This document shows, one piece after another, positions 33,993 through 64,000 of a stretch of DNA of 64,000 nucleotides. Each line of letters begins with the position of its first letter. Position 1 is the first letter of the stretch. The DNA is taken from the IMG/VR virus record IMGVR_UViG_2799112719_000001. One strand, written 5' to 3'. The translations under genes and the position numbers were made by a program. Below the pieces are notes generated by a model. The model was not told where the DNA came from and searched no databases. It saw only the letters and a list, made by a program, of their open reading frames with translations. This DNA is from a virus.

Positions 33993-36900
33993 ATGGCAGA
34001 TACAAAGAAATCCGAGGTAGTCATTACCTGTAACGCCCAACAGCCAAAGGCCGCTGTCCGTGCTATGGAAACGGAGCTGAAACGTCTTCAGGCTGCATAC
34101 AAGCAACTCTCCGACGCTGGTAAGGCCGGCACAGAGAGGGCAAAACAGATGGCTCACGAAATCAAGGAACTCTCCATCGCCGTGAAGGAGGGTAAGGCCA
34201 ACATGGATAAGATTGTTACCGTGACAAACAATCTTTCCAACTCTTCCCTGTCACAGCTGCAACGTGCTTTGCGCCAGGTGAAGAAAGAAATGGGCCGTGT
34301 CAGTACCGATTCGCCTAAACTCGATGACCTGCGCCAGAAATACAAGGCCATCACCGACCAAATCAAAATCCTTCAGGGTGAAATGGTCAACATCCAGAAG
34401 CACATGGGCAATTTCTCCCAGACTTCTGACGCATGGCTCTCTCGTGCCATCAATCAGCAGAAGCAACTCGTGGCTCAGACTGACAAAACGAATAGTGGCT
34501 ATCAGCGTCAGGTGGATATTCTGCATCAGCTTCAGGCCGAACAGCAGAATAGGGCAATGGCTACCGTATTGAATGGTGGTGCTACTGCTGATGATCTCCG
34601 TGCCGCTCGTGCCTCTATCACGTCTTACCGTGACCAGTTAGGTAAAGGTGGTATTATGCCTGTTGGTGGTGACGTGGCACGGGAAATTGAAGCCTGTAAT
34701 GTCGCTCTGAAGAAATGTGATGAGCAGTTGGATGTTATTGCCGGTAAGGAGAAACAGATTGAGCCGACCGTGCAGGAGATAGAGCAGGATATCACGAAAT
34801 TGGTTGGTAGTCTGGCTAACGCCTCTCCTGAACAGCTCCGTAAGGGTTTGGAGCAATGCCGTAACCAACTGGATAAGATGGCTGCAAACGACCCCAACCG
34901 TCAGAAGTGGGTTACTTGGGCAAAGCAGCTGAAAACGGCTCTCGAAGGTGTGGACCGTGAAGCCGTTGACATCGACAAAGTGATGCGTAACCTCAAAAAA
35001 GAGCCATTGGAGAATCTTCGTAAGGCTGCAAAGCAGTTGGAAGAGGAAATGGTGAAACTGAATCGTGAGGATGCAAAATATAAGGATCGCCAGAAACAAC
35101 TACAAAAGATTCGTGGTGAGATAGACAGTGTTACGCGCTCTATCAATAATCAGGCTTCTGCATGGAGTACGACGTTTAGAAATATCTCCATGTACTTTGG
35201 TGTGTTCCAGCTCTTCTCGATGGCACAGCAGAAGCTCCAAGAAATGCTCCGTAGTAACCTGGCTTACTCCGACCAGTTGGCAGACATCCGTAAGGTGACT
35301 GGACTGGCCACTAAGGATGTGAACGAATTGGCTGAAAGCATAGCAAAACTTGATACGCGCACAAGCATTCAGGAGTTGTCAGATTTGGCGTACCAAGGCG
35401 GTAAGATGGGATTTGGAAAATACGGTGTGGAAGGCATGGTCGAATTTGTCCGTGCTGCCGATCAAGTTAAGGTTGCTCTTTCCGATGACCTCGGCGAAGA
35501 CAGCCTCTTGCAGATTTCAAAGCTCATTGATACGATGGGCCTCATTCCGAAACTCGGTGTCGAAAAATCCATGCTGTCTGTAGGATCTGCCATTAACCAG
35601 CTTGCGGCCACTTCTACTGCCAGTGGTACGCATATCGTGGACTTCTCGAAACGCCTTACAGGTTTGTCGCGTATTACAGGAATTACTACGCCGGAGCTTT
35701 TGGCATTGGGAAGTGCAGCGGATGCTTTAGGGCAGGCTCCTGAAGTTGCAGCCACGGCCTTTGGTAAACTCTTCACGTCTTTGCAGACCAATCACAATCT
35801 GATTGAACAGCAGCTAAACATGGAGAAAGGTACTATCAATAACCTTTTCTCACAGGGTAAGGCTATGGAGGCCATTCTGCAAATCATGGAAAAGATGCGT
35901 GATAAGGGTAACATGAATGCGCTGGGTAACATCTGGAAAGATCTTGGTTCTGAGGGTCAACGCTTGATAGGTGTGATGGCCACCATGTCGAAGAATGTAG
36001 ATACTGTACGCGCACATGTAGAGGAAGCTAACGAGGCTTTTGAAGAGGCAACATCGCTGACCACGGAGTATGCCATGAAGCAGGAAACGGCTAATGCCAT
36101 TCTTGAACGTGCCAACCAACTTTGGGTAAGAACATTCGTGAACCCAGAGGGTGTTGACACCGTGAAGGAGCTGTCGCAGGCTTGGTATGACATGAGCCAA
36201 AAGCTGACCTCTTCGGCTCTCTACATGGGTCAAATAAGACTCGTGCTGACAATGATTATTGCTGCCGTGAAGCTGCTGGTGGTTCTGTTGCCTACGCTTA
36301 TCCAGTTCCTGTTGTTCAAGGGTGCTTATATGGGCGTGATGGCTCTCTATCGTGGCTTCGTGGCAATGAAGACTGCCATTATCGGTGCTATGGTGGCACA
36401 GCAGGGCCTTAACACGGCTATGAAGGCTAACATCTTCGGACTGATAATCTCCCTGATAGCTTCTGCCGTCGTTTGGCTAACAAACTATGGCAATGCTGCC
36501 GATGATGCTGCCAACAAGCAGAAGACGATGAACGAGTACATCAAGGAGGCTGCTGCTGAGATCGACAAAGAGACTCGTAAACTGGAATCCTATAAGCGTG
36601 TCCTGGAAGACGCGAACACGTCACAGGCACAGCGTGAGCGCATCCTGAGACAGTTTAACCGTACTTACGGCACCTATCTGAATAAACTCGGCATCGAGGT
36701 TAATTCGGTGGATGACCTGCGTAAGCATTACGCGCTCTTGAATGATGAACTGCGCAAAAAAATATATTACCAGACGAAGCAACGCGCTTACGATCAGGAG
36801 TTGGGCGATAAGGCTGGAGAGTTGGGCAAAAAGGCTCGTGCTTTCTCTGACCTGACGGTAAATAATTCGCGTGATGGCTCTTTTGCTGCCTACGATACCA

Positions 36901-43513: not shown

Positions 43514-44296
43514 ATGAAACGACCACTCGCCCACACTGCGATATACAAGCCTGAAGGCCCTGCACAGGAGTATGCTGTCTGGGGATGCAATCTCTATAAG
43601 GGATGCGTCCATCAGTGTACCTATTGCTATCTCCGTCGTGGCCCGATGGCAAAGCAGCTCGGCGGTGCTGTGCCTGAGATAGAGAAAAAAGTGGGTGGTA
43701 CGGAAGAGAAGGCTTACCGACGCTTCTGTATGGAAGTGGATGCTTACCATGAGTTGTTTAGGGCTGATGGTGGCATTTTCTTCTCTTTCAGTACCGACCC
43801 AATGCTTCGTGAGACGTATGCACTGACCATAAAGTGTGCTATCTATGCCATGGAGCACCATGTGCCGGTGTATATTCTCACGAAAGCGACATGGTGGGTA
43901 CAGAATACTGAGATTATCCAGCAGCTCTTTCCGTACCGCTATTATCTGCATATCGGCTTCACACTGACAGGCTTTGACTATATGGAGCCAAACGCTCCAA
44001 AGAACAGTAACCGCCAGGTGGCAATGATCATGCTGGAGAGCATGAATTTCAAGTGCTGGGCTTCGATGGAGCCAGTCATTGACTTTGCTATGTCGTTGGC
44101 TATCATTGAGACCGTAAAGGATGTGTGCCGTGAGTTCCGCATCGGCCTCCTGTCGCCCTACTCTGCCAAACGGTATGATTGGAATGAGTGTGACCGATTC
44201 ATGCAGCATGTCGAAAAACTATCAAACGAGTATGAGTTTAAGGTCGTTTGGAAGGAATCTATCAAGAAATTTTACCGAGAAGAAAAACCTGAATAA
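43514..44296 (+). CDS. Radical SAM protein (SplB/photolyase-like class)
   Basis: NLYKGCVHQCTYCY is a CxxxCxxC cluster near the N-terminus. Confidence 0.7.
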   Translation: MKRPLAHTAIYKPEGPAQEYAVWGCNLYKGCVHQCTYCYLRRGPMAKQLGGAVPEIEKKVGGTEEKAYRRFCMEVDAYHELFRADGGIFFSFSTDPMLRETYALTIKCAIYAMEHHVPVYILTKATWWVQNTEIIQQLFPYRYYLHIGFTLTGFDYMEPNAPKNSNRQVAMIMLESMNFKCWASMEPVIDFAMSLAIIETVKDVCREFRIGLLSPYSAKRYDWNECDRFMQHVEKLSNEYEFKVVWKESIKKFYREEKPE

Positions 44297-44787
44297 TGGC
44301 AAACAGAACACAGCAGAATCCAGTAGTCAGCTCCGATGAGTGGTACACCCCTCGTTGGGTTGTGGACGAACTCGGCCCGTTTGACCTTGATCCATGTGCG
44401 CCTATGCAACCTCCATACGAGATTGCGCCGTTGTCGTTCAATAAGGAGCAGGATGGATTGAGTCAGACGTGGCCGGACGCTGCTGTTGTGTTTATGAATC
44501 CACCTTATAGCCGTCCGCTGCTGCGTCCGTTTGTTGAGAAGCTGGCAGAGCATGGCAATGGTATCGCATTGCTGAAGAATCAGGTGGATAATCTGCTGTT
44601 CCAGGAAGTCGTTTTTGCTCGTGCCACCTCGATGCTCTTCATGCGTCATCGCATCAAGTTCATTACACCTGATGGCACCACCGGCTCCCCGTTCTTTGGC
44701 TCGGTGCTTGTGGCTTTTGGCCATGAATGTGACCGCCGCTTGCGCCGATCTTCCATCCCAGGAAAGTATGTTGTATTAAATATGTAA
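44296..44787 (+). CDS. Phage Dam-like DNA N6-adenine methyltransferase
   Basis: DEWYTP, FDLDPCA and the FMNPPYS catalytic motif. Confidence 0.8.
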   Translation: MANRTQQNPVVSSDEWYTPRWVVDELGPFDLDPCAPMQPPYEIAPLSFNKEQDGLSQTWPDAAVVFMNPPYSRPLLRPFVEKLAEHGNGIALLKNQVDNLLFQEVVFARATSMLFMRHRIKFITPDGTTGSPFFGSVLVAFGHECDRRLRRSSIPGKYVVLNM

Positions 44788-48801: not shown

Positions 48802-49701
48802 ATGGCAAAATTTCAAGATGTAATCGAATGTCTGAAAAAGGGTGGTTCTGCCCGTCGTATTTCGTGGACTGATAACTGCGAAATCATCCGTCAAATTCCG
48901 CAGTGTATCTCAAAGGACATCGTGCCTAAGATGACCTCATTGCCTGCAAGTATCAAACCAAAAATCAGCACTGTTGGCTCTGGTGAAATCTCATACCATG
49001 ACCAGGTAATCGTCATTACATTTGTCGATGATGAAAAGACTCCTGCCAGTGCCACATACTTCATCCCCACATGGGAAGATATCTTTGCTGAAGACTGGTC
49101 CTGTCTGACACCTGCCGATGAGCCTGAAACGGAAGAAAAAACCCCTGTGCTTGAAGCGTCAGCTTCGAGTGAAGACCAGCAGCCGGTCATCGACACCTCT
49201 ATTCCCGTCACTATGCGCATCAAGACTTACGAGGATGCCTTTAATGAGGTAAACATCCGTGCCATGCAGGGTGATAAGGTGGCCGAAAAACTCATTAAGG
49301 ATTTGCAGTTCAATTCGCCTTACACAGACGATCTGCTGGCATACATCAAGCTCCGCATTATCACCTATGCCATCAATGAGGGCTGGGAACCTCAGTTCGT
49401 TGTTGATGAGTATCGCTACTGGCCTTGGTTCTGGCTCTATACACAGCAGGAGATAGACGCTATGAACGAAGCGGAGCGTTCTAAGCTGCTGCTCGTCGGG
49501 GGTGCCGCGGATAGCGGTGCGCTTTGCGGTCTCGCTTTTGCGATCTCGAATCGCGCTTTCTCGGGCTCGCACACGTTCATCGGTGCTCGCCTGGCCTTCA
49601 AGTCTCGTGAACTTGCAGAGTATGCTGGTCGCCAGTTTATTGAGCTTTGGGCGGCTTTCTCATTCAAACCTGTTGTGAATGGCCATGGCAAAGGAAAATA
49701 A
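48802..49701 (+). CDS. DUF2829/Tad2-like N-domain fused to a C-terminal lectin-like domain carrying a DGR-type variable cassette
   Basis: Start at MAKFQDVIECLKKGGSARRISW...ISYHDQVIVI...IPTWEDIFAEDW (DUF2829 pattern). The C-terminus LLLVGGAADSGALCGLAFAISNRAFSGSHTFIGARLAF is paralogous to 63801-63916. Confidence 0.6.
   Translation: MAKFQDVIECLKKGGSARRISWTDNCEIIRQIPQCISKDIVPKMTSLPASIKPKISTVGSGEISYHDQVIVITFVDDEKTPASATYFIPTWEDIFAEDWSCLTPADEPETEEKTPVLEASASSEDQQPVIDTSIPVTMRIKTYEDAFNEVNIRAMQGDKVAEKLIKDLQFNSPYTDDLLAYIKLRIITYAINEGWEPQFVVDEYRYWPWFWLYTQQEIDAMNEAERSKLLLVGGAADSGALCGLAFAISNRAFSGSHTFIGARLAFKSRELAEYAGRQFIELWAAFSFKPVVNGHGKGK
49484..49599 (+). repeat. 116-nt variable-region-like cassette, copy 1
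   Basis: 100/116 identical to 63801-63916, with no similarity in the flanks. Rich in GCG/TCG/CTC codons. Confidence 0.8.
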
Positions 49702-52256: not shown

Positions 52257-52286
52257 ATGCCCGCTGGTTTCCCCAGCGGGTTTTTT
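52257..52286 (+). terminator. Conserved hairpin, family copy 5, with T-tract
   Basis: ATGCCCGCTGG-TTTCC-CCAGCGGGTTTTTT. Confidence 0.65.
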
Positions 52287-52348
52287 GTTTCCCCGAAATC
52301 GCGTTTTACAGCGAGAAATAGCGTCCATTCCCTATCCTCTGTGTTATC

Positions 52349-52356
52349 TACCTTTG
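52349..52356 (+). promoter_or_regulatory. -7 box TAccTTTG upstream of the protease gene
   Basis: Lies 27 nt upstream of the ATG at 52383. Confidence 0.4.
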
Positions 52357-52382
52357 CGAGTAGAATAAAATTCGCAAAAGAT

Positions 52383-54020
52383 ATGAATGGACTTCTCGAA
52401 CTTCTGACAACAAAGCTGTGGATGATTATGCCTGAATACGTCCACGGCTCTCGTGCTATTTGGGAGCAAAACCTGAATGGCCGCATAGCACTCGATCTTC
52501 AGCAGAAGAAAAAGCCCTATGCCATGCAGATACAGGATGGCCAGGCTGTCGGTGTCATCAATGAGTACCAGGTGACAGAAAACGGTAAGACTACCTCCCG
52601 TTGGTGGATGGACGAAATGGATGCTCCTTTTGTCAATGTCATGCCGGTGGATGGTCCTATCACTCGTGAAGGTGGTGCTTGCTCCTATGGCTCGATGGAT
52701 TTGCGCGACTGGATGATGGAGGCTGCAAATAATGAGTTCTGTCAGGCACACATCTTTGTTATTAACTCTCCTGGTGGTTCTGCATGGGCTATCAATGATT
52801 TCAAGCAGGCTATCGACTATGCCCATGAGCATGGTCAGAAGGTATATGCTTTCGTGGATGGCCTCTGTGCCTCTGCTGCTATGTACCTGGCCAGCGTATG
52901 TGATGAAGTGTACTACATGCACCCCAAGGATATGTTTGGATCCATCGGTGTGATGGCCGCTTTCTATACTGAAAAGAATGGCACCACCAATCAGTACACC
53001 AATGAGACTTACCATGAGCTGTACGATCCTGAGTCTTACGACAAAAACAAGTGGTATCGTGACATTGCTGAGAATAGCAAGAATGATAAGAAGCTGATGG
53101 ATGACCTGAAAAAGACGGGCGTAGAGTTCCGCGCTGACATCCAAAAGTCTTTCCCTGCTGCTACTGAGAAGCATATCCATGGTGCGCTCTTCGAGGCACA
53201 GGAGGTCACAGGCATTCTCTGTGATGGCCAGATGACTCTCGGAGAGGTCGTTGCCCGTGCCTTTGAGGTAGCCAACGGTTCTGCTACTCCCATTGAGCGC
53301 GTCGCTCCTGTTAAGCCGGAGGATGACGTGCCAGAGGATGATCCAGCTCCCGCCGCTTCTGCAAAAGCAACCACTACTGAAGCATCCGCTTCGGGTGAAA
53401 AGAATAACCCCTTAAACAAAGAGAATATGAAACAGTACGAAAAGATTGCCACCGCTTGCGGTGTAGAAGAGCTTATCGTCAACGAAGAAGGTGCCCACTT
53501 CGTGCCCTCTATGTTGGATGCGCTCAATCAGACGCTCGAACAGCAGGCTTCCGATAAGGCTGCCGCTGATGAGCAGGTACAGACTCTTCAGACCCAGCTC
53601 TCTGAGGCAGAGAATGCCAAGACTGAGGCCGTCAACGCCAAGGAGCAGGAACTGAATGACTCTCACGAGAAGGCTATGGGCGAGTTGAAGACCGCTCACG
53701 AGCAGGAGATTAACAACATGAAGCAGCAGCACGAAGAGCAGCTGAATGCCGAGAAGGAAGCCAAGGGTAAGGTCGAGCAGGAGCTGGCAGAGGTGAAGGA
53801 AAGCCTGGCCACTGCCGAGCAGCAGTTGAAAGACCGCGAAGCTCAGATTGAGACCTTGAAGGGCAAGCCTGGTGATCAGCAGGAGGGTTCGCCTGCCAAC
53901 AATGGCACTGGTGCTGAGTCTCACGAAGCTACCTGTGGTATGCCGGACTACGACCACAACAAGACCCCGCTGGAGAATGCCCGCATCCGCAAGGAGTACA
54001 TGGAATCTCTGCAAAAGTAA
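52383..54020 (+). CDS. Prohead serine protease (S49/ClpP-like) fused to a coiled-coil scaffold domain
   Basis: VINSPGGSAWAINDF...VDGLCASAAMYLASVCDEVYY matches the S49 pattern. The C-terminal 200 aa are an E/Q/K-rich coiled coil. Start moved out of the terminator hairpin. Confidence 0.75.
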   Translation: MNGLLELLTTKLWMIMPEYVHGSRAIWEQNLNGRIALDLQQKKKPYAMQIQDGQAVGVINEYQVTENGKTTSRWWMDEMDAPFVNVMPVDGPITREGGACSYGSMDLRDWMMEAANNEFCQAHIFVINSPGGSAWAINDFKQAIDYAHEHGQKVYAFVDGLCASAAMYLASVCDEVYYMHPKDMFGSIGVMAAFYTEKNGTTNQYTNETYHELYDPESYDKNKWYRDIAENSKNDKKLMDDLKKTGVEFRADIQKSFPAATEKHIHGALFEAQEVTGILCDGQMTLGEVVARAFEVANGSATPIERVAPVKPEDDVPEDDPAPAASAKATTTEASASGEKNNPLNKENMKQYEKIATACGVEELIVNEEGAHFVPSMLDALNQTLEQQASDKAAADEQVQTLQTQLSEAENAKTEAVNAKEQELNDSHEKAMGELKTAHEQEINNMKQQHEEQLNAEKEAKGKVEQELAEVKESLATAEQQLKDREAQIETLKGKPGDQQEGSPANNGTGAESHEATCGMPDYDHNKTPLENARIRKEYMESLQK

Positions 54021-54062
54021 TCAAGTTCACTTAGTAATAACCCCTTAAAAACAAAAAGAATT

Positions 54063-55343
54063 ATGGCTGAAAACAAAGCACCAGAGTTCATCGGTCGTGA
54101 GGCTCTTACTCATGTGGCCGAGCAGGTAGGTAAGCAGATCGTGATGGGTCCTGCCTACGAAGATCCCGAATTGCTCGATCGTCTGGGCATTCAGGTTATT
54201 AGTGGTGTGCAGTTCAAGAAGACTGACCATCTGCTTGTTCGTAAGGGTGGCACTACCCGTCGTAAGAAGGTTGGTACACCTGTCGAGAACAAGATTGGTT
54301 TCCTGAAGGAGCGCACCTTGGTTGCCAAGCTCACCTGGAACCGCTACAAAGACAACATCGACAACTATGTTGAGACTGTCTTCGGTACCGACGGTAAGGC
54401 TGGTGGCGACTATCCTCTCTCTACTGTTGCTGTCGAAGCTATCCTGAAGTCTTATGCCGAGGATTTGAAGAGCAATCTGTTCTTCGGCAAGATGGCCTAC
54501 GAGGACAGCGAGGACGAAGCAAAGCAGAAGCTCTCTCTCTACGACGGTTTCCATACCGACATTGAGCAGGACATCGAAGATGGTATTATCTCTGCCGAGA
54601 ATGGCAACCTGATTGCCTGTGATGCTATCTCTGTGCCTTCTGATGCACATGACAGCACTCCGTTTGACACGGTGCTGGAGTGGTACACCAAGTGGGATGC
54701 CCGTCTGCGCCAGCAGAAGGTGATCAAGCTCCACTGTGACGTGCTCCGTGGTCTCTACATCGCACAGGGCTATGCCAACAAGTATCATGGCAATACCAAG
54801 GTGAACTACCTGCCCAACGGCAACTTCACCGTGCCCGAAATGCCTCGCGTAGAGTTCTGTCCCTCTGATGCCTGGGGTGTTGGTACACGCCTGATGGCCA
54901 CTATCCCCAACAACCTCCAGTATGGAGTTGACTCTGAGAACAATCAGACCTTCGTTAAGACACAGTTTGGCACCGATGAGGATGCACAGGATGTGGTATT
55001 CCAGATCCAGTCTATCCAGGGCACCCGTGTCTTCAATCCGTTGGCTTCTGCATTCGTTATCAGTGACGGCTCGATTGCTGAGAATGTCATCAATGGTGAC
55101 TACGAGAACTCGAAGCTGGTCATCACACTGGATGGCGGTGGCTCCGGCGCAAAGGTAACTGTCAACGGCGAGGACTACGATGAGGTTCAGGAGTTTGCTC
55201 CTAACACCATCCTCACGCTGGTGGCTGTGCCTGGTACTGGTAAGGCTTTCGATCGTTGGTCTAACGGTAAGACCACCGCAACGATCAATGTGACCGCTAC
55301 GGGTATGCCGATGGCTCTGACCGCATTCTTCAAGAATGCCTAA
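54063..55343 (+). CDS. Major capsid protein (putative), with C-terminal Ig-like repeat
   Basis: Sits directly after the protease/scaffold gene and is 426 aa. The C-terminal VTVNGEDYDEVQEFAPNTILTLVAVPGTGKAFDRWSNG resembles the Listeria-Bacteroides (Flg_new) repeat. Confidence 0.6.
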   Translation: MAENKAPEFIGREALTHVAEQVGKQIVMGPAYEDPELLDRLGIQVISGVQFKKTDHLLVRKGGTTRRKKVGTPVENKIGFLKERTLVAKLTWNRYKDNIDNYVETVFGTDGKAGGDYPLSTVAVEAILKSYAEDLKSNLFFGKMAYEDSEDEAKQKLSLYDGFHTDIEQDIEDGIISAENGNLIACDAISVPSDAHDSTPFDTVLEWYTKWDARLRQQKVIKLHCDVLRGLYIAQGYANKYHGNTKVNYLPNGNFTVPEMPRVEFCPSDAWGVGTRLMATIPNNLQYGVDSENNQTFVKTQFGTDEDAQDVVFQIQSIQGTRVFNPLASAFVISDGSIAENVINGDYENSKLVITLDGGGSGAKVTVNGEDYDEVQEFAPNTILTLVAVPGTGKAFDRWSNGKTTATINVTATGMPMALTAFFKNA

Positions 55344-55351
55344 ACCTAATT

Positions 55352-55382
55352 CCGCACAGGGCGGTTCGCCGCCCTGATGCGG
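55352..55382 (+). terminator. GC-rich hairpin after the capsid gene
   Basis: CCGCACAGGGCGG-TTCG-CCGCCCTGATGCGG. Confidence 0.6.
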
Positions 55383-55443
55383 TAACGGTTTCCCTGAGAA
55401 CAGTTCTGCAAAAAAGTAACAACCCTAAAAATTAGAAAAGAAT

Positions 55444-56001
55444 ATGGCTGATACAGTATCTTGTCCCGCTCTCGATCATTTCCTGAACGCTGACAACTGC
55501 TTTGAAAACATTGGTGGCACATCGGCTGTGGCTTACTACTTCGTCAAAGATGACCTGTCGGCTCCCCTGGAATTGACTGGCAATGTGTACTCTACACCTG
55601 CCTTTAAGACTGGTAAGGGCCTCTATCGCATCGACCTGAAGGATGAAACCCAGCAGATTAAGGGTGACGGCCAGGGCAACAACAAGGGCTATAATCTGAC
55701 TTACAACGCCGTCATCGACGCTGTGAATAAGAAGGTGAGCCTCTTGTCTCGTGCTCTCCAGAACCTTGACATCGGTATCATCGTTCCTGATGGCCAGACG
55801 GGTGACACTCAAATTATGTACGACCCCTACAAGCGTGTTAAGGTTGAGCAGGGTGGTATTTCGTCTGATACGGGTGCCGCTTCTGGTGATGATCGTCAGA
55901 CCTCACTGGAGTTCCACCTCAATGGTGTGCTCTACGACAACCTCTACGTCACACCTCCCCAGACTGGTGGTTGGGATGGCCTGATGGTTGCAAGTTCTTA
56001 A
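55444..56001 (+). CDS. hypothetical head-associated protein
   Basis: 185-aa ORF between two terminator hairpins. Confidence 0.55.
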   Translation: MADTVSCPALDHFLNADNCFENIGGTSAVAYYFVKDDLSAPLELTGNVYSTPAFKTGKGLYRIDLKDETQQIKGDGQGNNKGYNLTYNAVIDAVNKKVSLLSRALQNLDIGIIVPDGQTGDTQIMYDPYKRVKVEQGGISSDTGAASGDDRQTSLEFHLNGVLYDNLYVTPPQTGGWDGLMVASS

Positions 56002-56023
56002 CCGACTATTCCCCTATCATTGC

Positions 56024-56059
56024 GCCCGCATCGCTGTTATCCCGATGCGGGCCTTTTTT
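56024..56059 (+). terminator. Hairpin plus T-tract terminator
   Basis: GCCCGCATCG...CGATGCGGGC followed by TTTTTT. Confidence 0.65.
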
Positions 56060-56066
56060 ATCCCCT

Positions 56067-56107
56067 GTTTTCTGTCCCACCCTTTTACCCTGTTTCCCCT
56101 AAATTTG
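56067..56107 (+). promoter_or_regulatory. Late-type promoter
   Basis: TTTTCTGTCCCACCC...CCCCTAAATTTGC, related to 33934-33970 and 60587-60623. Confidence 0.4.
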
Positions 56108-56168
56108 CTCCTGTCAATAATTGTTCCGTTTGCTGCAATACCGTTGCAGCCCTAAAAATTTAAGTACA

Positions 56169-57347
56169 ATGGATAAAAAACTTTTCACTGAAATGTCGCT
56201 TGATGAGCGCAAGGAATGGTTGGCAGAGTTCCAGCCGTGGTACGCTGAGAAGTTGCCTGTCATTGAATCGGGCAAATTCTCCCATAAGGATTTTGAACAG
56301 GGTCTTTCCCTGATTGCTGTGTTCCCCTTTACCCGCTCTTTTGTCCGTGAGGCTTTGCGCTTCCGTGATTATGCGTCCCGTAAGCGTTTGCTCCGCAACT
56401 ATTCTGACAAAGCACTTTCTGATGCAAAGGCTGCACTGGCCATTGCTGTTGACCTGACCGATCCTGCCTTGCTGGTGCCGCATGTTGGCCGTCCCACTAA
56501 GGATGAAGCTGCTGCCCGTGCGCTGAAGGCTGAGAATGACCGCAAGGAGGCAGAGGCAAAAGAAGAAACGCTTTTCGGTCCTAAGTCCGAGATTCCTACC
56601 ATCGACGCTGCCGCTCCTGGCACAGTGTCCGGCTCACTGAATGGTGGCACACTGTTGCACCTGGACCAGTTGAAGTGGCTCTTCTCTCCTGAATTGCAAG
56701 AGGCTGTAGAGACTGTCCGCGATTTGCGCTCTCGTGCAGAGGAAGCAGCAACGACGGCCAAGGTGCTTGCAGAAGCCGGTAAGCCTGAATCAGAAGTAGA
56801 GCCTTATAGCCAGGAGGCCGTCAAATGCACAGAGGCTTACGAGGCTATCTACGTCCGTGTAGATAACGAGCTGGCTGTGGTATATGTGCGCCTGAAGGAA
56901 GATACTGCTTTCCGTGCCAGTATCGAAGCTCAGAAGGTGGATCCCCAGCAGCTGCGCACTACCCTGCGCCCCTATTGGGATAAGGTAGAGGATAAGGATG
57001 CTTTCAAGGCCAAGGTCATTGAGGACATCAAGGCCAACGACCCAGAGCAGAAGGCTCTCCGTGAGGCAGAGGAAAAGAAGAAAGAGCAGGTAGATGCTAT
57101 CGTCAAGTACCTCATGCGTAAGGATAAGCCTAATACGCCAAAGCGTATTGAGACCATGACACAACGCTACCAGGCTTTGGTGGAACTGATTGGCGAGGAA
57201 GAGGCAAAGCCTTACCTGGCCGTGCTGAATGCCGCCAAAGAGGATTGCGAGAAGAATGTGGTCCCCGCTGCTGAAGCTCTGAAAGCCGAGAAAGCCGCCG
57301 CCAAGAAAGCAGCCAAGGCCGAAAAGAAATCTGCTAAAAAGAAATAA
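56169..57347 (+). CDS. hypothetical protein with Lys/Ala-rich basic tail
   Basis: Start at the ATG (MDKKLFTEM). The C-terminus reads AEKAAAKKAAKAEKKSAKKK. Confidence 0.55.
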   Translation: MDKKLFTEMSLDERKEWLAEFQPWYAEKLPVIESGKFSHKDFEQGLSLIAVFPFTRSFVREALRFRDYASRKRLLRNYSDKALSDAKAALAIAVDLTDPALLVPHVGRPTKDEAAARALKAENDRKEAEAKEETLFGPKSEIPTIDAAAPGTVSGSLNGGTLLHLDQLKWLFSPELQEAVETVRDLRSRAEEAATTAKVLAEAGKPESEVEPYSQEAVKCTEAYEAIYVRVDNELAVVYVRLKEDTAFRASIEAQKVDPQQLRTTLRPYWDKVEDKDAFKAKVIEDIKANDPEQKALREAEEKKKEQVDAIVKYLMRKDKPNTPKRIETMTQRYQALVELIGEEEAKPYLAVLNAAKEDCEKNVVPAAEALKAEKAAAKKAAKAEKKSAKKK

Positions 57348-57376
57348 CCACTGTGCCCAGCGGTTTTCCGCTGGGT
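57348..57376 (+). terminator. Conserved hairpin, family copy 6
   Basis: CCACTGTGCCCAGCGG-TTTT-CCGCTGGGT. Confidence 0.6.
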
Positions 57377-57424
57377 CCGTCTTCGTGTCTTCATAAAATC
57401 ATTAACTCATAAATTCATAAATAA

Positions 57425-57787
57425 ATGAAAAAGAAAATCCTAACAGCATTGGCAGCTGGTGCAGCTGCTATCGCAGGTGGACTGGTTTCGAGTCCGTCAG
57501 GTCAGCAACTCATGGAACAGGCTGCATCACAGGCGCAAGGCCAGCAGGTGACAGCACAGGCTCCCCAGCGTTACAACAATAATAGCCAGCAGCAGGCTCA
57601 GAACCGTTTGCCTGGCCAGACCGTCCAGCAGTACCTCAGTAATCCCTATGCGCCGATGGGTGGTGGTCGTTACTATGGTAATGGCTATGGAATGTCGCCC
57701 AAGGAGTATGGCGAATATTTGATGCGTACTGGTAAGGATAAGTACAACAAACGTAAGCGCAAGCATATTGCAAAAGGTTTCGCGTAG
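57425..57787 (+). CDS. small secreted or membrane-anchored Q-rich protein
   Basis: N-terminal MKKKILTALAAGAAAIAGGLV, Q-rich middle and basic C-terminus. Confidence 0.5.
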   Translation: MKKKILTALAAGAAAIAGGLVSSPSGQQLMEQAASQAQGQQVTAQAPQRYNNNSQQQAQNRLPGQTVQQYLSNPYAPMGGGRYYGNGYGMSPKEYGEYLMRTGKDKYNKRKRKHIAKGFA

Positions 57788-57832
57788 GCCGGTGGTTTCC
57801 CATCGGCTTATGCCCTCTTAACTCTTCACTCA

Positions 57833-58552
57833 ATGTCAAAACCTTCAGAAAAATACTTCGACAAAGTAGAACGCTGGTTATTGGGTGGCATCACCATCGA
57901 AAAAATGGTGCTGTCGCCTGATCAGCGTTTCCGTGCGCTGCTGGCTTACGAGGCATACCAGATTTGGATTCAGGACAAACAGATACGGCCATCTGACGTG
58001 ATGCGTCGCATTGCTGCCCGTGAATATCCAGTGCTCTTACAGAGAGCCAGCGAGGGCGACACAAAGGCTATGGAGTATGTAGCCGCTATGAATGTGCGTC
58101 CTGGTGTTCCGCGTACACCTACCGAGATATCTAACGACGTGGCTCTCTTCAATCATATCATAGGACGTTTCGATACGCCCATTGACAACATCGAGAAGGC
58201 AAAGGTGCAGGATGCGTCCGACTGGCTTATTCGTGAGGGGATGAAGATGGGCGACCCGCGTAGTGTGAAGTCTGGTGCCGACCTGAAGATGCAGCTCAAT
58301 AACAACTTCCAGGAGAAAGAGGATGTGGCAGGACAGATGCCGTCTTCTGAGATCACCATCACTACTGATGTGTCGGTAGTGAAGCGTGACCGCGTGAATT
58401 ATACCGACGAAGAGCGTAAGAAGATGGCTAAACGCTACGGATTGACCGACAAACAGGTAGTCGATATGATACAAAACTCTGATGGTACATGGCAGATGCC
58501 TGATGAACAGCCGGAGCCAGAACCAGAGAAAGATGTATTTTCAGAAGAGTAG
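57833..58552 (+). CDS. putative terminase small subunit
   Basis: Assigned by position only: immediately upstream of the large terminase with a 4-nt gap, 239 aa. Confidence 0.35.
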   Translation: MSKPSEKYFDKVERWLLGGITIEKMVLSPDQRFRALLAYEAYQIWIQDKQIRPSDVMRRIAAREYPVLLQRASEGDTKAMEYVAAMNVRPGVPRTPTEISNDVALFNHIIGRFDTPIDNIEKAKVQDASDWLIREGMKMGDPRSVKSGADLKMQLNNNFQEKEDVAGQMPSSEITITTDVSVVKRDRVNYTDEERKKMAKRYGLTDKQVVDMIQNSDGTWQMPDEQPEPEPEKDVFSEE

Positions 58553-58555
58553 CCT

Positions 58556-60547
58556 ATGGCAGAGAGAAGAGACGTTTACATGAACCACAAGCAGTACCTG
58601 ATGTACCTGATGAATGTACGAGACGGTCGCTTGCTTGGTAGCCGACGATTTGGTAAGACTGACGGCTCTATCGGGCCTCGCATCTATCGTGTCAGTCAGT
58701 CTATGCCTCGTGCTACGAATATATGGTTGGGAAACTCCAGAAAACAGCTCTATACCCGTACCGTTCCTGGCACCATTGCCGCCATTGAGCGTTTCTTTGG
58801 CATCCGTGAGTCAGTACATTTCGGCTGGGGTAAACCGCCACGATGGGTGCCGAGTCCTATCATCAAACCGAAGACCTGGGATAACTGCATCTGGTTTGCT
58901 AATGGCACCATTTGGCAACTCATTTCAATGGCAGTCACGGGATCGGCCAATTCGCTGACGGTAAACTCCATCGTGGCCGATGAGTGCAAGTTTATGTCGA
59001 AGTCCAAACTGGATGGTGAAGTCATGCCGGCATTGTCAGGTATCGTGCATCCGTTGGGCGACCCGTCTTTCTCTGATGCAAACCCACTTTTCAAATCCAC
59101 TTTCTTTGCCTCTGATGCGAGTCTGACATCAAAGAATAACTGGCTGGAGAATGAGGAAAGCAAACTCGACATGCACCCTGATACGGGGCCATTGACTAAC
59201 AAGACCTATCGGGAGATACAGGCTGAGTTGGAAGACTATGCAGAGCGTGTCATCTTCTACAATGAACTGCTGCGTAATGCCAAGCGTGACGGCTGTGTGC
59301 CTATCCTTTGCCGTCAGGATGAGATAGATGCCATCCGTATCAAGGCACAGGCCATGATGAACCACGAAGGCCCGTTCAAGATCCTGCCGAACTATGGCCA
59401 ACGTATCAATAAGGCCATGCTCGATATGGCTATCAACTATAAACTGATTGATGCAGAGGAAGCGGAATTACTCTATTGCCATAAGTATCTGATTACACCT
59501 GACCAGGACTTTGACATGCAGATGATTCTTAACTCGAAGTCCTACCAGAAGAAAATCCGTACCTTACAGTGTAACGCCTTTGCATTTTGGCGTGTCAGCA
59601 CCTTAGACAATGTAGATATCGTCGGAGAGTCGTACATAGCGAGAATGGCGCGTGACCTTCCTCCTGTCGTGTTTGCCATATCTATTCTTAATAAAAAGGT
59701 GGCAAAGACTAACGACGGTTTCTATTCCAATCTCGATATTGAGAATGTGCATGGCTATATTCCTGATGACTGTCCGGCCATTGACAGCAGCTTCACGAAA
59801 AAGAAAGCTATGACTGTGCTCGGTGGCTCTGCTACTGAAGAAGAGTACGAGACTCCCGACTTTGGCGAGTTACAGCAGATCAAAGACTGCACTCTGGATG
59901 GTGACGTAGTGGACGCGCTGCCTTTGTATATCAGCATGGACTATAACGCTAACATTAACTGGGTGGTGACTGGGCAACTCTATCGCAGGGATAACCAGGA
60001 ATGTCTCAATGTGCTCTCCAGTATGTATGTCAAGAATGAGCGTAAGCTGCGTGAGCTGATGGGCGACTGGCATCACTACTATAAGCCTAAGATGCAGAAA
60101 TGCCGTGAGGTCATCTATTTCTATGATGCAACAGCCAAGTTCAAAGGCTATGCCATCGAGGGTATGGAAGACTTCAAGGATGTGGTCATTAACGAGCTGA
60201 CGAAATACGGTTGGTCTGTACGGCCTGTTGACATGGGATCACCGATGGCCCACGAAATGAAGTATAAGGATATCAACGAGTCGCTGGCTGGTGTGGCCTA
60301 CCCTGCTATCCGCATCAATCGTGAGAATAACGAGGCTCTGATTATTGCCATGCAGAATGCGGAGGTGTCTATCGGCTATAAAGGGTTTAGGAAGAATAAA
60401 GCAGGTGAAAAGCTCTCTGAAGACGCAGACGATGCAGTACGCCTGGAGTACAGAACGGACGGCACCGATGCGTTTGACTCGCTCTATATTGGCTGCCGCT
60501 ATCATCTTACAAACATGTCGGGCATGTGCCTTCCATTAGGTGATTAG
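58556..60547 (+). CDS. terL: Terminase large subunit
   Basis: Walker A-like GSRRFGKT, Walker B-like SIVADE, 663 aa. Confidence 0.65.
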   Translation: MAERRDVYMNHKQYLMYLMNVRDGRLLGSRRFGKTDGSIGPRIYRVSQSMPRATNIWLGNSRKQLYTRTVPGTIAAIERFFGIRESVHFGWGKPPRWVPSPIIKPKTWDNCIWFANGTIWQLISMAVTGSANSLTVNSIVADECKFMSKSKLDGEVMPALSGIVHPLGDPSFSDANPLFKSTFFASDASLTSKNNWLENEESKLDMHPDTGPLTNKTYREIQAELEDYAERVIFYNELLRNAKRDGCVPILCRQDEIDAIRIKAQAMMNHEGPFKILPNYGQRINKAMLDMAINYKLIDAEEAELLYCHKYLITPDQDFDMQMILNSKSYQKKIRTLQCNAFAFWRVSTLDNVDIVGESYIARMARDLPPVVFAISILNKKVAKTNDGFYSNLDIENVHGYIPDDCPAIDSSFTKKKAMTVLGGSATEEEYETPDFGELQQIKDCTLDGDVVDALPLYISMDYNANINWVVTGQLYRRDNQECLNVLSSMYVKNERKLRELMGDWHHYYKPKMQKCREVIYFYDATAKFKGYAIEGMEDFKDVVINELTKYGWSVRPVDMGSPMAHEMKYKDINESLAGVAYPAIRINRENNEALIIAMQNAEVSIGYKGFRKNKAGEKLSEDADDAVRLEYRTDGTDAFDSLYIGCRYHLTNMSGMCLPLGD

Positions 60548-60556
60548 TGTGCTATT

Positions 60557-60585
60557 CCACTGTGCCCAGCGTTTTCCTGCTGGGA
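60557..60585 (+). terminator. Conserved hairpin, family copy 7
   Basis: CCACTGTGCCCAGCG-TTTTCCT-GCTGGGA. Confidence 0.55.
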
Positions 60586-60586
60586 G

Positions 60587-60623
60587 TTTGTCCCTAACTC
60601 CTGCGTCTTTCCCCCTATCTTTG
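60587..60623 (+). promoter_or_regulatory. Late-type promoter
   Basis: TTTGTCCCTAACTCC...CCCCTATCTTTGC. Confidence 0.45.
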
Positions 60624-60658
60624 CTCAAAAATAAATAAAATTCTAAACCCTATTTAGT

Positions 60659-61459
60659 ATGTCACAGTTATCTATCTCCTACCAGCACCCGAAGTATGTC
60701 TCAGACATCTTCGCTGGGAGTGTTATCATTGATTGCACATTCCCGACTGAGGGATTCCACCTCGTAACGGTAGAGTCCAGTAAGGACCAGGAAAACTGGT
60801 CAGTGTTCCAAAGCCAGGTCGTTGACCTTAATCTCTCATTCAAGGTGCTGTCACCGTCTAAGTCGCTTTTCTTCCGTCTTACCATGAGTAAGCAGCCGAC
60901 GGCCATCAATATCGACACGATTATTGATGGCACCACCACTAAGGAGGATATTGAGAATGTCATCGAAGAGAAGTGTGCTGACGTGGCACTCTCTGGCGAG
61001 GCAAAGGATGTGACGCTGACGGCTATCACCGGCCTCGTGGCTACGCAGGTGCAGGCTGCCATTGCAGAGCTGCTGGCAAAGATCATTTCTCTGGGTGCCG
61101 CTATCTCCTATGAGGGACAGGTGGCCGACTATGCTCATCTGCCGTCTTCTGACTTGAAGAAAGGCTACATGTATAACGTGGTAGCGGCTAATGATAAGAT
61201 TCCTGCCGGTACCAACTATGTTTGGAATGGTGAATCATGGGATCCGATGGTAGGTCAGATCGACCTTACGCCGTTCCTCACTTCTACCGATGCTGCAAAC
61301 ACCTACGTTGCCCTTAATGCCAGTGCTACGAATGCCGGTTCTGACATTGTGCGCCTGCTGGGTGTCAACAGCCAGGGTAAGGCTATCTCTATCACGCCGA
61401 AAGCCATTGTCGAATACGTCATCAAGACGCTAATGGATGATGACCTGCTCGCTGTATAG
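60659..61459 (+). CDS. tail-fibre-like protein
   Basis: The segment TGLVATQVQAAIAELLAKI resembles motifs common in phage fibre proteins. Confidence 0.4.
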   Translation: MSQLSISYQHPKYVSDIFAGSVIIDCTFPTEGFHLVTVESSKDQENWSVFQSQVVDLNLSFKVLSPSKSLFFRLTMSKQPTAINIDTIIDGTTTKEDIENVIEEKCADVALSGEAKDVTLTAITGLVATQVQAAIAELLAKIISLGAAISYEGQVADYAHLPSSDLKKGYMYNVVAANDKIPAGTNYVWNGESWDPMVGQIDLTPFLTSTDAANTYVALNASATNAGSDIVRLLGVNSQGKAISITPKAIVEYVIKTLMDDDLLAV

Positions 61460-61470
61460 CATTGTTTAGT

Positions 61471-61498
61471 CACTGTGCCCAGCGGATTTCCGCTGGGA
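61471..61498 (+). terminator. Conserved hairpin, family copy 8
   Basis: CACTGTGCCCAGCGG-ATTT-CCGCTGGGA. Confidence 0.6.
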
Positions 61499-61511
61499 TA
61501 AAGAGTAAAGT

Positions 61512-62696
61512 ATGAAAAGACTGAATAACTCTCAACCGCTGGCAGTCACTACGACCTACAGACCGCTCAACACCGCAATGCACATTGAGGTGCTGGGTGG
61601 CCTGTCAACTGTGCAGTTCTATCGTCAGACGGTGCAGCAGTGGATTCCTGACCATTCTGTTGTGCCTGTTATCGACCAGCACGGCACACAGACAGATGGC
61701 GCATTGCGACTGAAAGCGGTTTATAGTATCATCGACCCCGACAACAACCTGAATACTGATACTCTCGTGCCTCAGATATTCTGGTATGTCAATGGGGTGC
61801 AGGTGACTTCCACCGATTCAACTCAGGACTATTACATTGCCGGTAATATCCTGTATGTCCGAAAGAACTTCACACACCAGCTGGGAGCGAACATCTATTG
61901 TGAGTGCCGCTTTACTGACACCCGCACATCGTCGCCCTTCGTGCTGTCTGATACGCTGCCGCTGTCGGCCATCCTACAGGCTGATGAGCAGTGGAGCATC
62001 AATATCCTGTGTGATCGTACCCGTAAGCACTTCCCGCTTCATGCCGCTACGACTATCTACACATTCGAGGCAGAAGCACGTCAGGGTAGTGCTGACAAAA
62101 CGGATGCGGTAGCATGGTTCTGGGACTATTCTGTTGATAATGGTGTGCATTGGCTGACCATCAATAATGATTGCCTCTGGTATGTCAGCGGAAAGAACAC
62201 GGCTACGCTGTCTATCGACGCAGACTTCATAGACAATCTGATGGTGCGCTGTCGTATCGGTATTGCCGATGGTACGTCAACAGCGGCTCCAGACCTGCCT
62301 AATGAGGCAACGGCCTGCATCGCGTGGCGTTATCCGAAGGTAATACCTACGGTATTCTCTTATGGAGGCGACCGAGTGTTTGCTGAGAACTCCTTTATGA
62401 CCTTTGGCCTGATAGTGCATGTGGCCAAGCATGATGACATGACGCTCGAACAGAAACGTCATTGGCTGATGTGCGATTGGGCGGTACGTCGCCAGGGTAG
62501 TAATGATGATCCTGTGCCGCTGGGTGCCTATGGCCTGGAGGTCGTGGTACCAAGACAGTACATCTACGACAATGCCGGCACTAAGTTCATTGTGGATCCT
62601 CGTTGCTCCATTCGTGGACCCTACGACATCCTGGCTGACCCGTCAGGCGAGGTGTTCCAGTCTGCATCTGGCCATGAACTCGCTGTAAGAACATAG
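61512..62696 (+). CDS. hypothetical structural protein
   Basis: 394-aa ORF between two fibre-like genes. Confidence 0.55.
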   Translation: MKRLNNSQPLAVTTTYRPLNTAMHIEVLGGLSTVQFYRQTVQQWIPDHSVVPVIDQHGTQTDGALRLKAVYSIIDPDNNLNTDTLVPQIFWYVNGVQVTSTDSTQDYYIAGNILYVRKNFTHQLGANIYCECRFTDTRTSSPFVLSDTLPLSAILQADEQWSINILCDRTRKHFPLHAATTIYTFEAEARQGSADKTDAVAWFWDYSVDNGVHWLTINNDCLWYVSGKNTATLSIDADFIDNLMVRCRIGIADGTSTAAPDLPNEATACIAWRYPKVIPTVFSYGGDRVFAENSFMTFGLIVHVAKHDDMTLEQKRHWLMCDWAVRRQGSNDDPVPLGAYGLEVVVPRQYIYDNAGTKFIVDPRCSIRGPYDILADPSGEVFQSASGHELAVRT

Positions 62697-62722
62697 TAAT
62701 AACCCTTTAATATTCACGAAAG

Positions 62723-63970
62723 ATGAAAAAAGCAAAAACTTCTCTTGCGTCTGGTGAAAACATAGCCAAGGTGTTGTGTATGACCAGTCAGGACAATCTC
62801 TACGAGGCTACGCCCGAAGAGGTGAACAACAGTGCCATTCCATCTACTGTTGTTGGTGCGCTTGCTTCCAGCTTCACACTGGAGCAAAACTCTAATCCGG
62901 CCTTTGTGGTCAATAATCGTGGTGCTGCTGAACTCTATCAGTCTCAGATGGGTGGCTATGCCTTCTTTATCAAAGATGGTAAGGTGTATGCTGCAAAGCT
63001 GAATGGTGCTGATTGGACGAAGTTTGCCGATGGCACGGCGTTTACTACTGCACTTGAACAGGTGTGCGAGACGATGGTACATGTACCTGATTGCCACTTC
63101 AAGGGTGAGGGTAAGACGCTGCATTTCGGTGGTACTGTGCCTATCGACGGTGGCAAGGTCTTCGATTCACCTCATTGGGTAGGTGCCTACAAGATCAGCT
63201 ACGATGCCAACAACAAGGCACACAGCCGTCCTGACAAGGCTCCGAAGCACTCACAGACAATGAGCCAGTTCTGGGCTGCCGCTCAGTTGCTCGGTTCTGA
63301 GTGGGGATTGGCTAACTACGGCTTCCATTGCCTGATTAACGCGCTGTTCCAGGCCCGCTATGGCAACCTAAACTCACAGAGCGTCATCGGTGCCGGCTTC
63401 CAGACATCTTCATGGGAGGCTGCGCGTGACGTACCTATGGGCTTGCTGAAGCATTTGGGCGACGGTAGCGGTAATGTGTACTACACTGATACCACTATTG
63501 GCGACCAGTACCCCGTGAAGCTCTTTGGCTTCGAGGATCTTTGGGGAAAGCTCTGGGAGTTCCGTCCTGGCATCCGCTTCTACATGGATGATGATGTCCG
63601 TAAGGCTGTGGTCTATTCTGGCAACCAGGTGAGCAATACGGCTACTGGCCGTGAGTTCGTTTGTTCCGTACAGTCTGCATCAGGTGCTTATGTCAAGAGC
63701 ATGGAGTGCGGAGAGTTCTGGGATATGATTGCTCAGAATGTCACGGGTGGCGGTAGCACTACATACTATTGTGATGGGTACTATGCCGCTACGACTGGTC
63801 AGCTGCTGGTCGTCGGGGGTGGCGCGAATAGCGGTGCGCTATGCGGTCTCGTTTATGCGCGCTCGAATTACGCTTTCTCGAGCTCGATCACGAGCATCGG
63901 CGCTCGCCTGGCCTTCTACGGGGAGCCGGAAATCGTGAGCGGAGCACAGTTGGTGGCCCTGACCGCGTAA
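62723..63970 (+). CDS. Receptor-binding/fibre-like protein with C-terminal DGR-type variable cassette
   Basis: The C-terminus QLLVVGGGANSGALCGLVYARSNYAFSSSITSIGARLAF fits the lectin-fold variable-region pattern and lies 18 codons before the stop. Confidence 0.6.
   Translation: MKKAKTSLASGENIAKVLCMTSQDNLYEATPEEVNNSAIPSTVVGALASSFTLEQNSNPAFVVNNRGAAELYQSQMGGYAFFIKDGKVYAAKLNGADWTKFADGTAFTTALEQVCETMVHVPDCHFKGEGKTLHFGGTVPIDGGKVFDSPHWVGAYKISYDANNKAHSRPDKAPKHSQTMSQFWAAAQLLGSEWGLANYGFHCLINALFQARYGNLNSQSVIGAGFQTSSWEAARDVPMGLLKHLGDGSGNVYYTDTTIGDQYPVKLFGFEDLWGKLWEFRPGIRFYMDDDVRKAVVYSGNQVSNTATGREFVCSVQSASGAYVKSMECGEFWDMIAQNVTGGGSTTYYCDGYYAATTGQLLVVGGGANSGALCGLVYARSNYAFSSSITSIGARLAFYGEPEIVSGAQLVALTA
63801..63916 (+). 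repeat. 116-nt variable-region-like cassette, copy 2
   Basis: 100/116 identical to 49484-49599. Confidence 0.8.
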
Positions 63971-63978
63971 GCGGGTCA

Positions 63979-64000
63979 TGGCCAGCCAGCTTGTGCAGCC
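63979..64000 (+). CDS. start of an ORF cut by the window edge
   Basis: ATG GCC AGC CAG CTT GTG CAG, 8 nt after the upstream stop. Function unknown. Confidence 0.3.

Follow-up and report, generated by a model that had tools for sequence, protein, structure and literature searches.

No natural system for the targeted hypermutation of proteins is known in bacteria and phages other than diversity-generating retroelements (DGRs), which abound in gut phages. In Bordetella phage BPP-1 (Mtd/Avd/TR/bRT) information flows in an adenine-specific manner from a template repeat (TR) to a variable region (VR) located at the 3' end of a tail-protein gene. The Bordetella reverse transcriptase (RT), bRT, requires Avd, a protein forming a four-helix bundle, and a recognisable Avd is missing from many catalogued DGRs. 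The DGR of Quimbyvirus has one structural target and one remote, non-structural target residing in a counter-defence island, and such non-structural target proteins have few recognisable domains (PMC8008677). In four Bacteroidota prophage species, a second VR has been reported to lie distally, close to counter-defence genes (Nature 2025, PMC12629997). The window analyzed here, a 64,000-nt stretch from IMG/VR virus record IMGVR_UViG_2799112719_000001, very probably holds two target sites of one active DGR, carried by an uncultivated ~104 kb tailed gut phage. As in Quimbyvirus and LoVEphage, one TR is accompanied by two VRs, of which one (VR2) marks a tail protein encoded next to the TR and the RT, the other (VR1) a remote non-structural protein encoded near DNA-modification genes. 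This layout has already been described for those two phages; the homology of the remote targets is established here. The fusion of the remote target to a Tad2-like domain of an anti-defence family, kept under strong purifying selection, appears to be new, and full-text literature searches turned up no publication in which a DGR target is connected with DUF2829 or Tad2.

Two 116-nt cassettes of the window (49484–49599 and 63801–63916) can be aligned without gaps, and are identical at 100/116 positions (E = 3e-35 by BLAST within the window), while their flanks are unrelated. An earlier, sequence-only reading of the window had noticed this pair, and the alignment reproduces its figures. By codon position, the 16 mismatches read 1,2,1,3,2,2,1,2,1,2,1,1,2,1,2,3; the recount confirms that 14/16 lie at positions 1–2, and the four codon pairs said to retain C in third position (ATC/CGC, CGC/TAC, CAC/ATC, TTC/AGC) are all present. 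Both cassettes encode the peptide motif GG(G)A(N/D)SGALCGL..A.SN.AFS.S.T.IGARLAF, as had been stated, and both lie close to the 3' end of their open reading frames (ORFs), ending 33 (VR1) and 17 (VR2) codons before the stop. The G+C content of the cassettes is 63–65%, vs 48% in the window. The suggestion that GCG, TCG and CTC codons are atypical for the genome is correct for GCG, which makes up 8% of the Ala codons genome-wide and yet specifies 3 Ala residues in each VR. TCG (15% of Ser codons) is modestly enriched in the cassettes, while CTC is an ordinary codon (21% of Leu codons). Neither a third copy of the repeat (BLAST, word size 7) nor an RT (YxDD scan) was found inside the window.

The missing components reside just past its 3' end, where the sequence-only reading had suggested that they may lie. 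By exact-protein look-up, the gene carrying VR2 was found on a 104,187-bp public metagenomic contig (L001), 100% identical to the last 4 kb of the window (60001–64000); window coordinates correspond to L001 coordinates plus 52722. A third copy of the repeat, the TR, with sequence LLNVGGNANNGAQCGLAYANSNNAFSNSNTNIGARL, begins 313 nt past the window end, within 727 nt of L001 that are devoid of called genes, and the RT gene begins 697 nt past it. The cassette therefore begins at the 3' end of the window and runs beyond it, in the order VR2 in the tail-protein gene, a 343-nt gap, the 110-nt TR, a 274-nt spacer and the 448-aa RT, with VR1 located 14.2 kb upstream. The + strand carries the two VRs as well as TR and RT. 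The unit homologous to the TR measures 110 nt rather than 116 nt, the last 6 nt being different, and ends 35 (VR1) and 19 (VR2) codons before the stop.

Divergence of the VRs is directed to the adenines of the TR. VR1 differs from the TR at 17 positions, all corresponding to TR adenines (17/17, P = 8e-14, hypergeometric), VR2 at 14, of which 12 correspond to adenines (P = 2e-7). The third copy thus features adenine at the variable sites, as a template should according to the sequence-only reading. The 26 TR adenines are spread over 8 AAC, 2 AAT and 4 other codons. A stop codon is unreachable by mutating any of them, and ~2e14 peptide variants can be reached per target. At the 3' end, the hexamer GCCTTC is constant in 19/19 VR copies (12 VR1 and 7 VR2) from the contigs compared below, and is replaced by AAATTA in all TRs. 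It is preceded by a 14-nt adenine-free stretch, TCGGYGCTCGCCTG. The GCCTTC/AAATTA difference is the pattern expected of a boundary of the type formed by the initiation of mutagenic homing sequence and its TR counterpart (IMH/IMH*).

Both VRs are diversified beside an invariant TR. Variation was compared across samples and contigs. In 7 related contigs of ~100 kb the TR is 99–100% identical, and so are, at 95–100%, the 300 nt preceding VR2, but VR2 itself is only 79–87% identical. Changes affect 25/26 adenine columns of VR2, with 102/182 adenine cells substituted vs 7/588 non-adenine cells. VR1 behaves in the same way in 12 contigs, where 24/26 adenine columns vary, and 160/312 adenine cells are substituted vs 14/1008 non-adenine cells; 9 of these 14 differences correspond to one T/C site, which is polymorphic in the TR too. 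Between contigs VR1 is 84% identical, its flanks 98%. In two more distant relatives (L023 and L024, see below) mismatches are found at adenines only (17/17 and 14/14, respectively). At the protein level, 111 variants of the VR2 protein taken from the protein database show an entropy of 2.54 bits at the 15 adenine-bearing codons, vs 0.043 elsewhere. Along the VR1 gene, the ratio of non-synonymous to synonymous polymorphism (pN/pS, 12 contigs) is 0.03 in the Tad2-like domain, 2.0 in the linker, 0.03 in the scaffold of the C-terminal domain, 6.0 in the VR and 0.06 past the VR. Populations thus vary at the sites singled out in the sequence-only reading and, across contigs, almost nowhere else. Since the variation sits at adenines beside an invariant TR, both VRs are being rewritten from one conserved template, and the view that two VRs are served by one template is upheld by the TR, the RT, the adenine-confined divergence and the population data alike.

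Table 1. Features of the two-target DGR; coordinates past 64000 are window equivalents of L001 positions
Feature	Window coordinates	L001 coordinates	Strand	Description
VR1 gene	48802–49701		+	299 aa from the gene-caller ATG; 342 aa from an upstream ATG at 48673
Tad2-like (DUF2829) domain	48802–49110		+	aa 1–103, PF11195
C-terminal domain	49207–49698		+	~165 aa (residues ~136–299), carries VR1; phrog_11581 at 7e-46
VR1	49484–49593		+	110 nt homologous to TR
GCCTTC boundary at VR1	49594–49599		+	fixed 3' boundary, IMH-like; AAATTA in TR
VR2 gene	62723–63970		+	415-aa tail protein adjoining the cassette
VR2	63801–63910		+	110 nt homologous to TR
GCCTTC boundary at VR2	63911–63916		+	fixed 3' boundary, IMH-like; AAATTA in TR
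Start of non-coding gap	63969–64000		+	first part of the 343-nt gap after the VR2 gene
GC-rich inverted repeat	63969–64027	11247–11305	+	right after the VR2 stop; DNA fold z = -3.1; followed by a pyrimidine run
TR	64313–64422	11591–11700	+	110-nt third copy, 313 nt beyond the window 3' end
Structured spacer RNA core	64487–64639	11765–11917		found also in L023–L035
RT gene	64697–66043	11975–13321	+	448 aa, single ORF, starts 274 nt after TR
DUF4376 gene	66121–66783	13399–14061		220 aa, immediately after RT

The VR2 protein matches phrog_5302, annotated as tail protein (1.8e-40), and over the last 240 aa it shows homology to the C-terminus of the DGR target of Hankyphage (E = 3e-15). C-type lectin domains have been reported in VR-bearing targets of Hankyphage (PMC6199706) and Quimbyvirus (PMC8008677). 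Changes in VR2 most likely retune receptor binding.

The VR1 protein is made of three parts, namely the Tad2-like domain, a fast-evolving acidic linker, and the VR-bearing domain at the C-terminus. The first part matches PF11195 at 29.1 bits, above the cut-off of 25 (E = 1.5e-6). In profile searches the best match is SptTad2 (E = 0.007), followed by weak matches to SPO1 Tad2, ModTad2 and AcrIIA7; solved Tad2 proteins resemble the domain only weakly in sequence (E = 0.007–0.3), and residue-level mapping to them is unreliable. Hallmark Tad2 motifs are found both at the N-terminal (F..V.E.LK.G..A.R..W) and at the C-terminal side (W.P...DI.AEDW) of the domain. When its AlphaFold model was compared by Foldseek to the Protein Data Bank (PDB), the top 11 matches were all Tad2 structures, with probability 1.0 and target-normalised TM-scores (TMt) of 0.55–0.70; E values of these matches are only ~2e-3, and the predicted local distance difference test (pLDDT) of the N-terminal domain is only ~40–76. 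Stand-alone homologs of the domain, ~70% identical, match both PF11195 and PF21825.

The C-terminal domain belongs to a family of 2,710 representatives (50% clustering, E<=1e-3), which are mostly stand-alone proteins of ~195 aa; in ten members of greater length, Pfam recognises no domain on the N-terminal side. It is 46% identical to the remote VR protein of LoVEphage. No match to the domain was found in Pfam or among PDB sequences, and NCBIfam models match neither target protein. In the AlphaFold2 model the domain has a pLDDT of 78, the VR loop a value <50; Foldseek matches this model to no PDB structure, and a BFVD search with it retrieved uncharacterised phage proteins only. In one contig (L017, 1624–2523, corresponding to window 48802–49701) a CAG to TAG change at linker codon 126 splits the VR1 gene into a 125-aa Tad2-like ORF and a 162-aa C-domain ORF, and the VR is still unique. 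In another (L114, IMGVR_UViG_3300038345_000087, 106,650 bp) the C-domain alone is encoded at the syntenic locus (5989–6495, 168 aa), between a DUF4406 gene and a homolog of the 88-aa gene, which precede and follow it, respectively. Because L114 features the C-domain alone at the same locus, the Tad2-like domain looks like a lineage-specific addition.

What the VR1 protein does is less clear-cut than in the case of the tail protein. A role inside the cell, in counter-defence, may be proposed with much lower confidence than the tail role of VR2. The remote target might be a hypervariable counter-defence protein, in which a conserved Tad2-like sponge of immune signals (or an AcrIIA7-like inhibitor) is coupled to a DGR-diversified binding domain; the idea is tentative and rather less likely than not. 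A plausible alternative, to which we assign a fair share of the probability short of even chances, is that the DGR is real and the VR1 protein is an adsorption or virion-associated ligand binder, the Tad2-like fold serving only as a structural or oligomerisation module. All phage DGR targets that are understood from experiments bind receptors (as cited in PMC8008677 and PMC12629997), VR1 and the tail protein share one VR peptide scaffold, and a head-protease gene (52257) lies only 2.5 kb downstream of the VR1 gene. Most members of the C-domain family are small, stand-alone proteins with no anti-defence domain, and in the close relative L114, as mentioned, the C-domain stands alone at this very locus. 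Against a place in the virion speak the neighbours on the upstream side, since the VR1 gene closes a replication and nucleotide metabolism block, following the Dam methylase (44296–44787), YopX and DUF4406 genes, with primase and thymidylate-synthase-like genes nearby, none of which is structural. The homolog in LoVEphage similarly has three DNA methyltransferases and a tRNA ligase as neighbours. Moreover, the members of DUF2829 of known function are AcrIIA7 and the Tad2 sponges, which sequester gcADPR, His-ADPR or cyclic nucleotides and thereby inhibit Thoeris, and purifying selection on the Tad2-like domain is strong.

Second, non-structural DGR targets near counter-defence genes have been noted since 2021, and the proteins had no recognisable domains. 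The Tad2-like fusion, found in one abundant phage lineage, turns this neighbourhood association into a testable hypothesis, according to which the protein would bind immune nucleotides or defence proteins, and the VR would alter that specificity. If the counter-defence reading is true, the phage keeps re-tuning an intracellular anti-immunity factor instead of a receptor-binding protein. With the Tad2 fusion, a functional domain would then be recognised for the first time in this widespread family of non-structural DGR targets, giving a direct experimental handle on their role.

The RT is encoded by a single ORF. It matches phrog_1423, annotated as reverse transcriptase (3e-68), and among PDB structures the Bordetella phage DGR RT 8ub7 comes closest (E = 9e-21), a group II intron RT scoring only 3e-4; NCBIfam models of group II intron and retron RTs are far under their cut-offs. 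Among annotated phage proteins it is most similar to the Hankyphage DGR RT (31% identity across 92% of the length, E = 1e-39). The catalytic motif is YCDD. The protein is ~120 aa longer than bRT (448 vs 328 aa), and carries a C-terminal extension of ~110 aa (residues ~340–448, L001 12992–13318), which is found also in the Hankyphage RT and is missing from bRT; residues 340–437 match phrog_19665. The extension might stand in for Avd.

Several observations weigh against the picture of an active, two-target DGR and of the roles assigned to its targets. An Avd-like ORF, which the sequence-only reading had proposed to look for, was not recovered, as none of the 48 small ORFs of window and cassette matches PF05635, in a search that leaves ~20–30 kb of the genome outside. 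In the RT, the DGR-typical motif IGxxxSQ reads IGLFPIQ (SQ to IQ), and Pfam RVT_1 scores 22.3 bits, under the gathering score of 29.6. Two of the differences between VR2 and the TR do not involve adenines, and the variation data are of cross-sample, as opposed to read-level, nature. No hairpin or cruciform directly follows VR1 (z = 0). For the VR1 domain, neither a PDB sequence profile nor Foldseek searches of PDB and BFVD recovered a C-type lectin fold, so that of the lectin-fold, ligand-binding C-termini invoked in the sequence-only reading the fold is unconfirmed for VR1, by sequence as by model searches. Finally, the function of the VR1 protein is proposed from its domain family and its neighbourhood only.

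Some of these observations could be accommodated if the DGR were a decayed relic, no longer capable of retrohoming, and the VR differences were old inherited polymorphisms. The Avd result, the two non-adenine substitutions in VR2 and evidence coming from comparisons across samples rather than within one population fit this explanation, which we regard nonetheless as very improbable. The 111 VR2 protein variants, otherwise 92–97% identical, feature 101 distinct VR peptides. Two contigs (L005 and L006) have 100% identical flanks and TR, but are only 80% identical in VR2. The T/C polymorphism of the TR is mirrored by the VR2 of the same contig in 7/7 cases. The RT ORF is intact and retains YCDD in all relatives, and the 274-nt spacer is invariant in 7 contigs. 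That the window holds ordinary paralogous domains, kept alike by recombination or gene conversion with no retroelement, might be concluded from the window alone, which shows two 86%-identical copies and no RT, but is already refuted by the non-coding third copy with adenine at the variable sites next to an RT of the DGR clade, by variation that keeps to the adenine columns throughout 19 VR copies and by a pN/pS of 6 in the VR vs 0.03 in the scaffold. Even if the readings of the Tad2-like domain, of the spacer and of the Avd search should fail, a well-documented active two-target phage DGR remains.

The spacer between TR and RT appears to hold a structured RNA. In relatives having an RT 55–78% identical to the one described here it retains a core of ~150 nt, in which two hairpin insertions vary in length. 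These relatives are two contigs of metagenome-assembled genomes (MAGs) binned as Prevotella/Prevotellaceae and contigs of IMG/VR. The RNA features an invariant AGUUGUAC loop, closed by a stem which covaries (AUGC/GCAU, AGAC/GUCU, AUAC/GUAU, GUGC/GCAC). In a hand-drawn structure of 15 pairs, derived from the same sequences on which it was scored, 100% of 138 cells pair, and compensatory changes are found at 6 pairs, on 10 sequences; 0/500 shuffles reach this result, and slid controls drop to 19–62% paired. A long-range helix drawn by RNAalifold (columns 99–102 with 194–197) was discarded, as a local helix (99–101 with 150–152) is better supported by covariation. The minimum free energy of the full TR plus spacer is no better than that of shuffled sequences (z = -0.14), and the structure emerged only from comparative data. 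The covariance model finds matches only in the clade with RTs >=55% identical, and none in Hankyphage, LoVEphage and ~70 more distant DGR loci. Rfam has no match on the cassette or on the whole window. The spacer thus appears to contain a new RNA, restricted to this clade and backed by covariation.

That Avd is apparently missing also seems to be new. Between VR2 and TR there is no + strand ORF >36 aa. RTs of this clade may be able to dispense with Avd, relying on the structured spacer RNA peculiar to the clade and on the ~110-aa extension. Spacer RNA and lack of Avd bear on how cDNA is primed in non-Bordetella DGRs. The gene that follows the RT encodes a DUF4376 protein, and a DUF4376 protein is encoded right after the RT also in Hankyphage (161 aa, L021 5281–5766), despite an RT identity of 31%. 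DUF4376 was not found in LoVEphage by Pfam, and the protein as a conserved RT accessory is for this reason only a lead; it may act as an accessory, or just belong to the tail module. The 161-aa ORF located behind the DUF4376 gene was considered as a counterpart of the Hankyphage 161-aa ORF, and turned out to be unrelated.

We infer the biochemical steps from the Bordetella paradigm, and the functions of both target proteins are likewise inferred. TR and spacer would be transcribed, and the spacer would fold into the conserved structure, presumably recruiting or priming the RT. The RT would copy the TR into cDNA, misincorporating opposite to template adenines. The cDNA would then replace either VR, homing via the shared adenine-free 3' stretch and the VR-specific GCCTTC. 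We propose that the TR is never overwritten because it lacks the GCCTTC boundary. The hairpin behind the VR2 stop is probably the terminator of the tail-gene operon, and not a VR-linked cruciform.

Known elements resemble the one described here to different extents. In LoVEphage (OY725593), whose layout (tail-protein VR, TR and RT in overlapping ORFs) fits the description of Quimbyvirus, VR–TR mismatches are all at adenines (13/13 and 11/11). Its TR is visibly homologous to the TR described here, its remote target is homologous to the C-domain, and the same 3' boundary pattern sets apart VRs and TR. In contrast, the RT of Quimbyvirus and LoVEphage is encoded in three overlapping frames, rather than in a single intact ORF. 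The remote VR of LoVEphage, located in a 194-aa protein, is on the strand opposite to the cassette, here on the same strand, and its protein lacks the N-terminal Tad2-like domain. The two phages are also unrelated, the ~104 kb lineage being a different one, and the spacer RNA model has no match in LoVEphage. Hankyphage (Bacteroides phage p00) has the closest annotated RT, C-terminal extension included, the same gene order (VR, TR, RT, DUF4376 gene), a similar TR 3' end and a homologous target C-terminus. It differs as a 43 kb Mu-like temperate phage, in which the spacer RNA element is missing, and only one VR is annotated in the record, at the C-terminus of a large ORF (residues 2188–2225; PMC6199706).

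The similarity to BPP-1 concerns the adenine-specific flow from TR to VR, the position of the VR at the 3' end of a tail-protein gene, the conserved TR–RT spacer and the RT, homologous to bRT (8ub7). The adenine-free, GC-rich stretch followed by a VR-specific boundary resembles the (G/C)14 and IMH/IMH* of the Bordetella element. Unlike in BPP-1, no Avd was found, the RT is 120 aa longer, the targets are two, no cruciform directly follows the VRs, and the spacer RNA has no detectable Rfam relation. As for Tad2 and AcrIIA7 (DUF2829, PF11195), the domain scores above the PF11195 cut-off, and its model folds like SPO1 Tad2 and ModTad2. Known Tad2 proteins, however, are stand-alone and measure ~90–100 aa, whereas here the domain is fused, via the acidic linker, to a DGR-diversified domain.

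The phage belongs to a lineage distinct from both Hankyphage and Quimbyvirus/LoVEphage. DGRs of Bacteroides phages were mentioned in the sequence-only reading, and the nearest relatives of the DGR described here are those of Hankyphage and Quimbyvirus/LoVEphage. By megablast, the window end has no match in GenBank phages. Neither Pfam nor PHROG recognises the putative capsid protein (54063–55343) or most proteins of the structural block (52257–62696), and tblastn searches of 50,697 GenBank phage records gave no match to them; in this set the lineage has no cultured relative with a sequenced genome. No tRNAs were found within the window. The lineage is common in metagenomes, as its proteins are indexed in 300–440 collection blocks, and is present also in IMG/VR. 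Contigs of whole-phage size that bear the same cassette were found in a roe-deer Prevotella MAG (L023, JAFTQG010000025.1, 104,715 bp) and in the Prevotellaceae assembly RUG443 (L024, ONMN01000004.1, 93,576 bp). Binning to Prevotella/Prevotellaceae is a weak hint at the host, and the lineage lives in animal guts too. The left ~50 kb of the window encodes ligase, clamp, DNA methyltransferase, primase, a thymidylate-synthase-like protein, Dam, dUTPase and dCTP deaminase. Among these replication genes resides an ORF of 1,879 aa (33993–39632) with tape-measure-like PHROG matches, far from the head and tail block at 52–64 kb, which makes for an unusual gene order.

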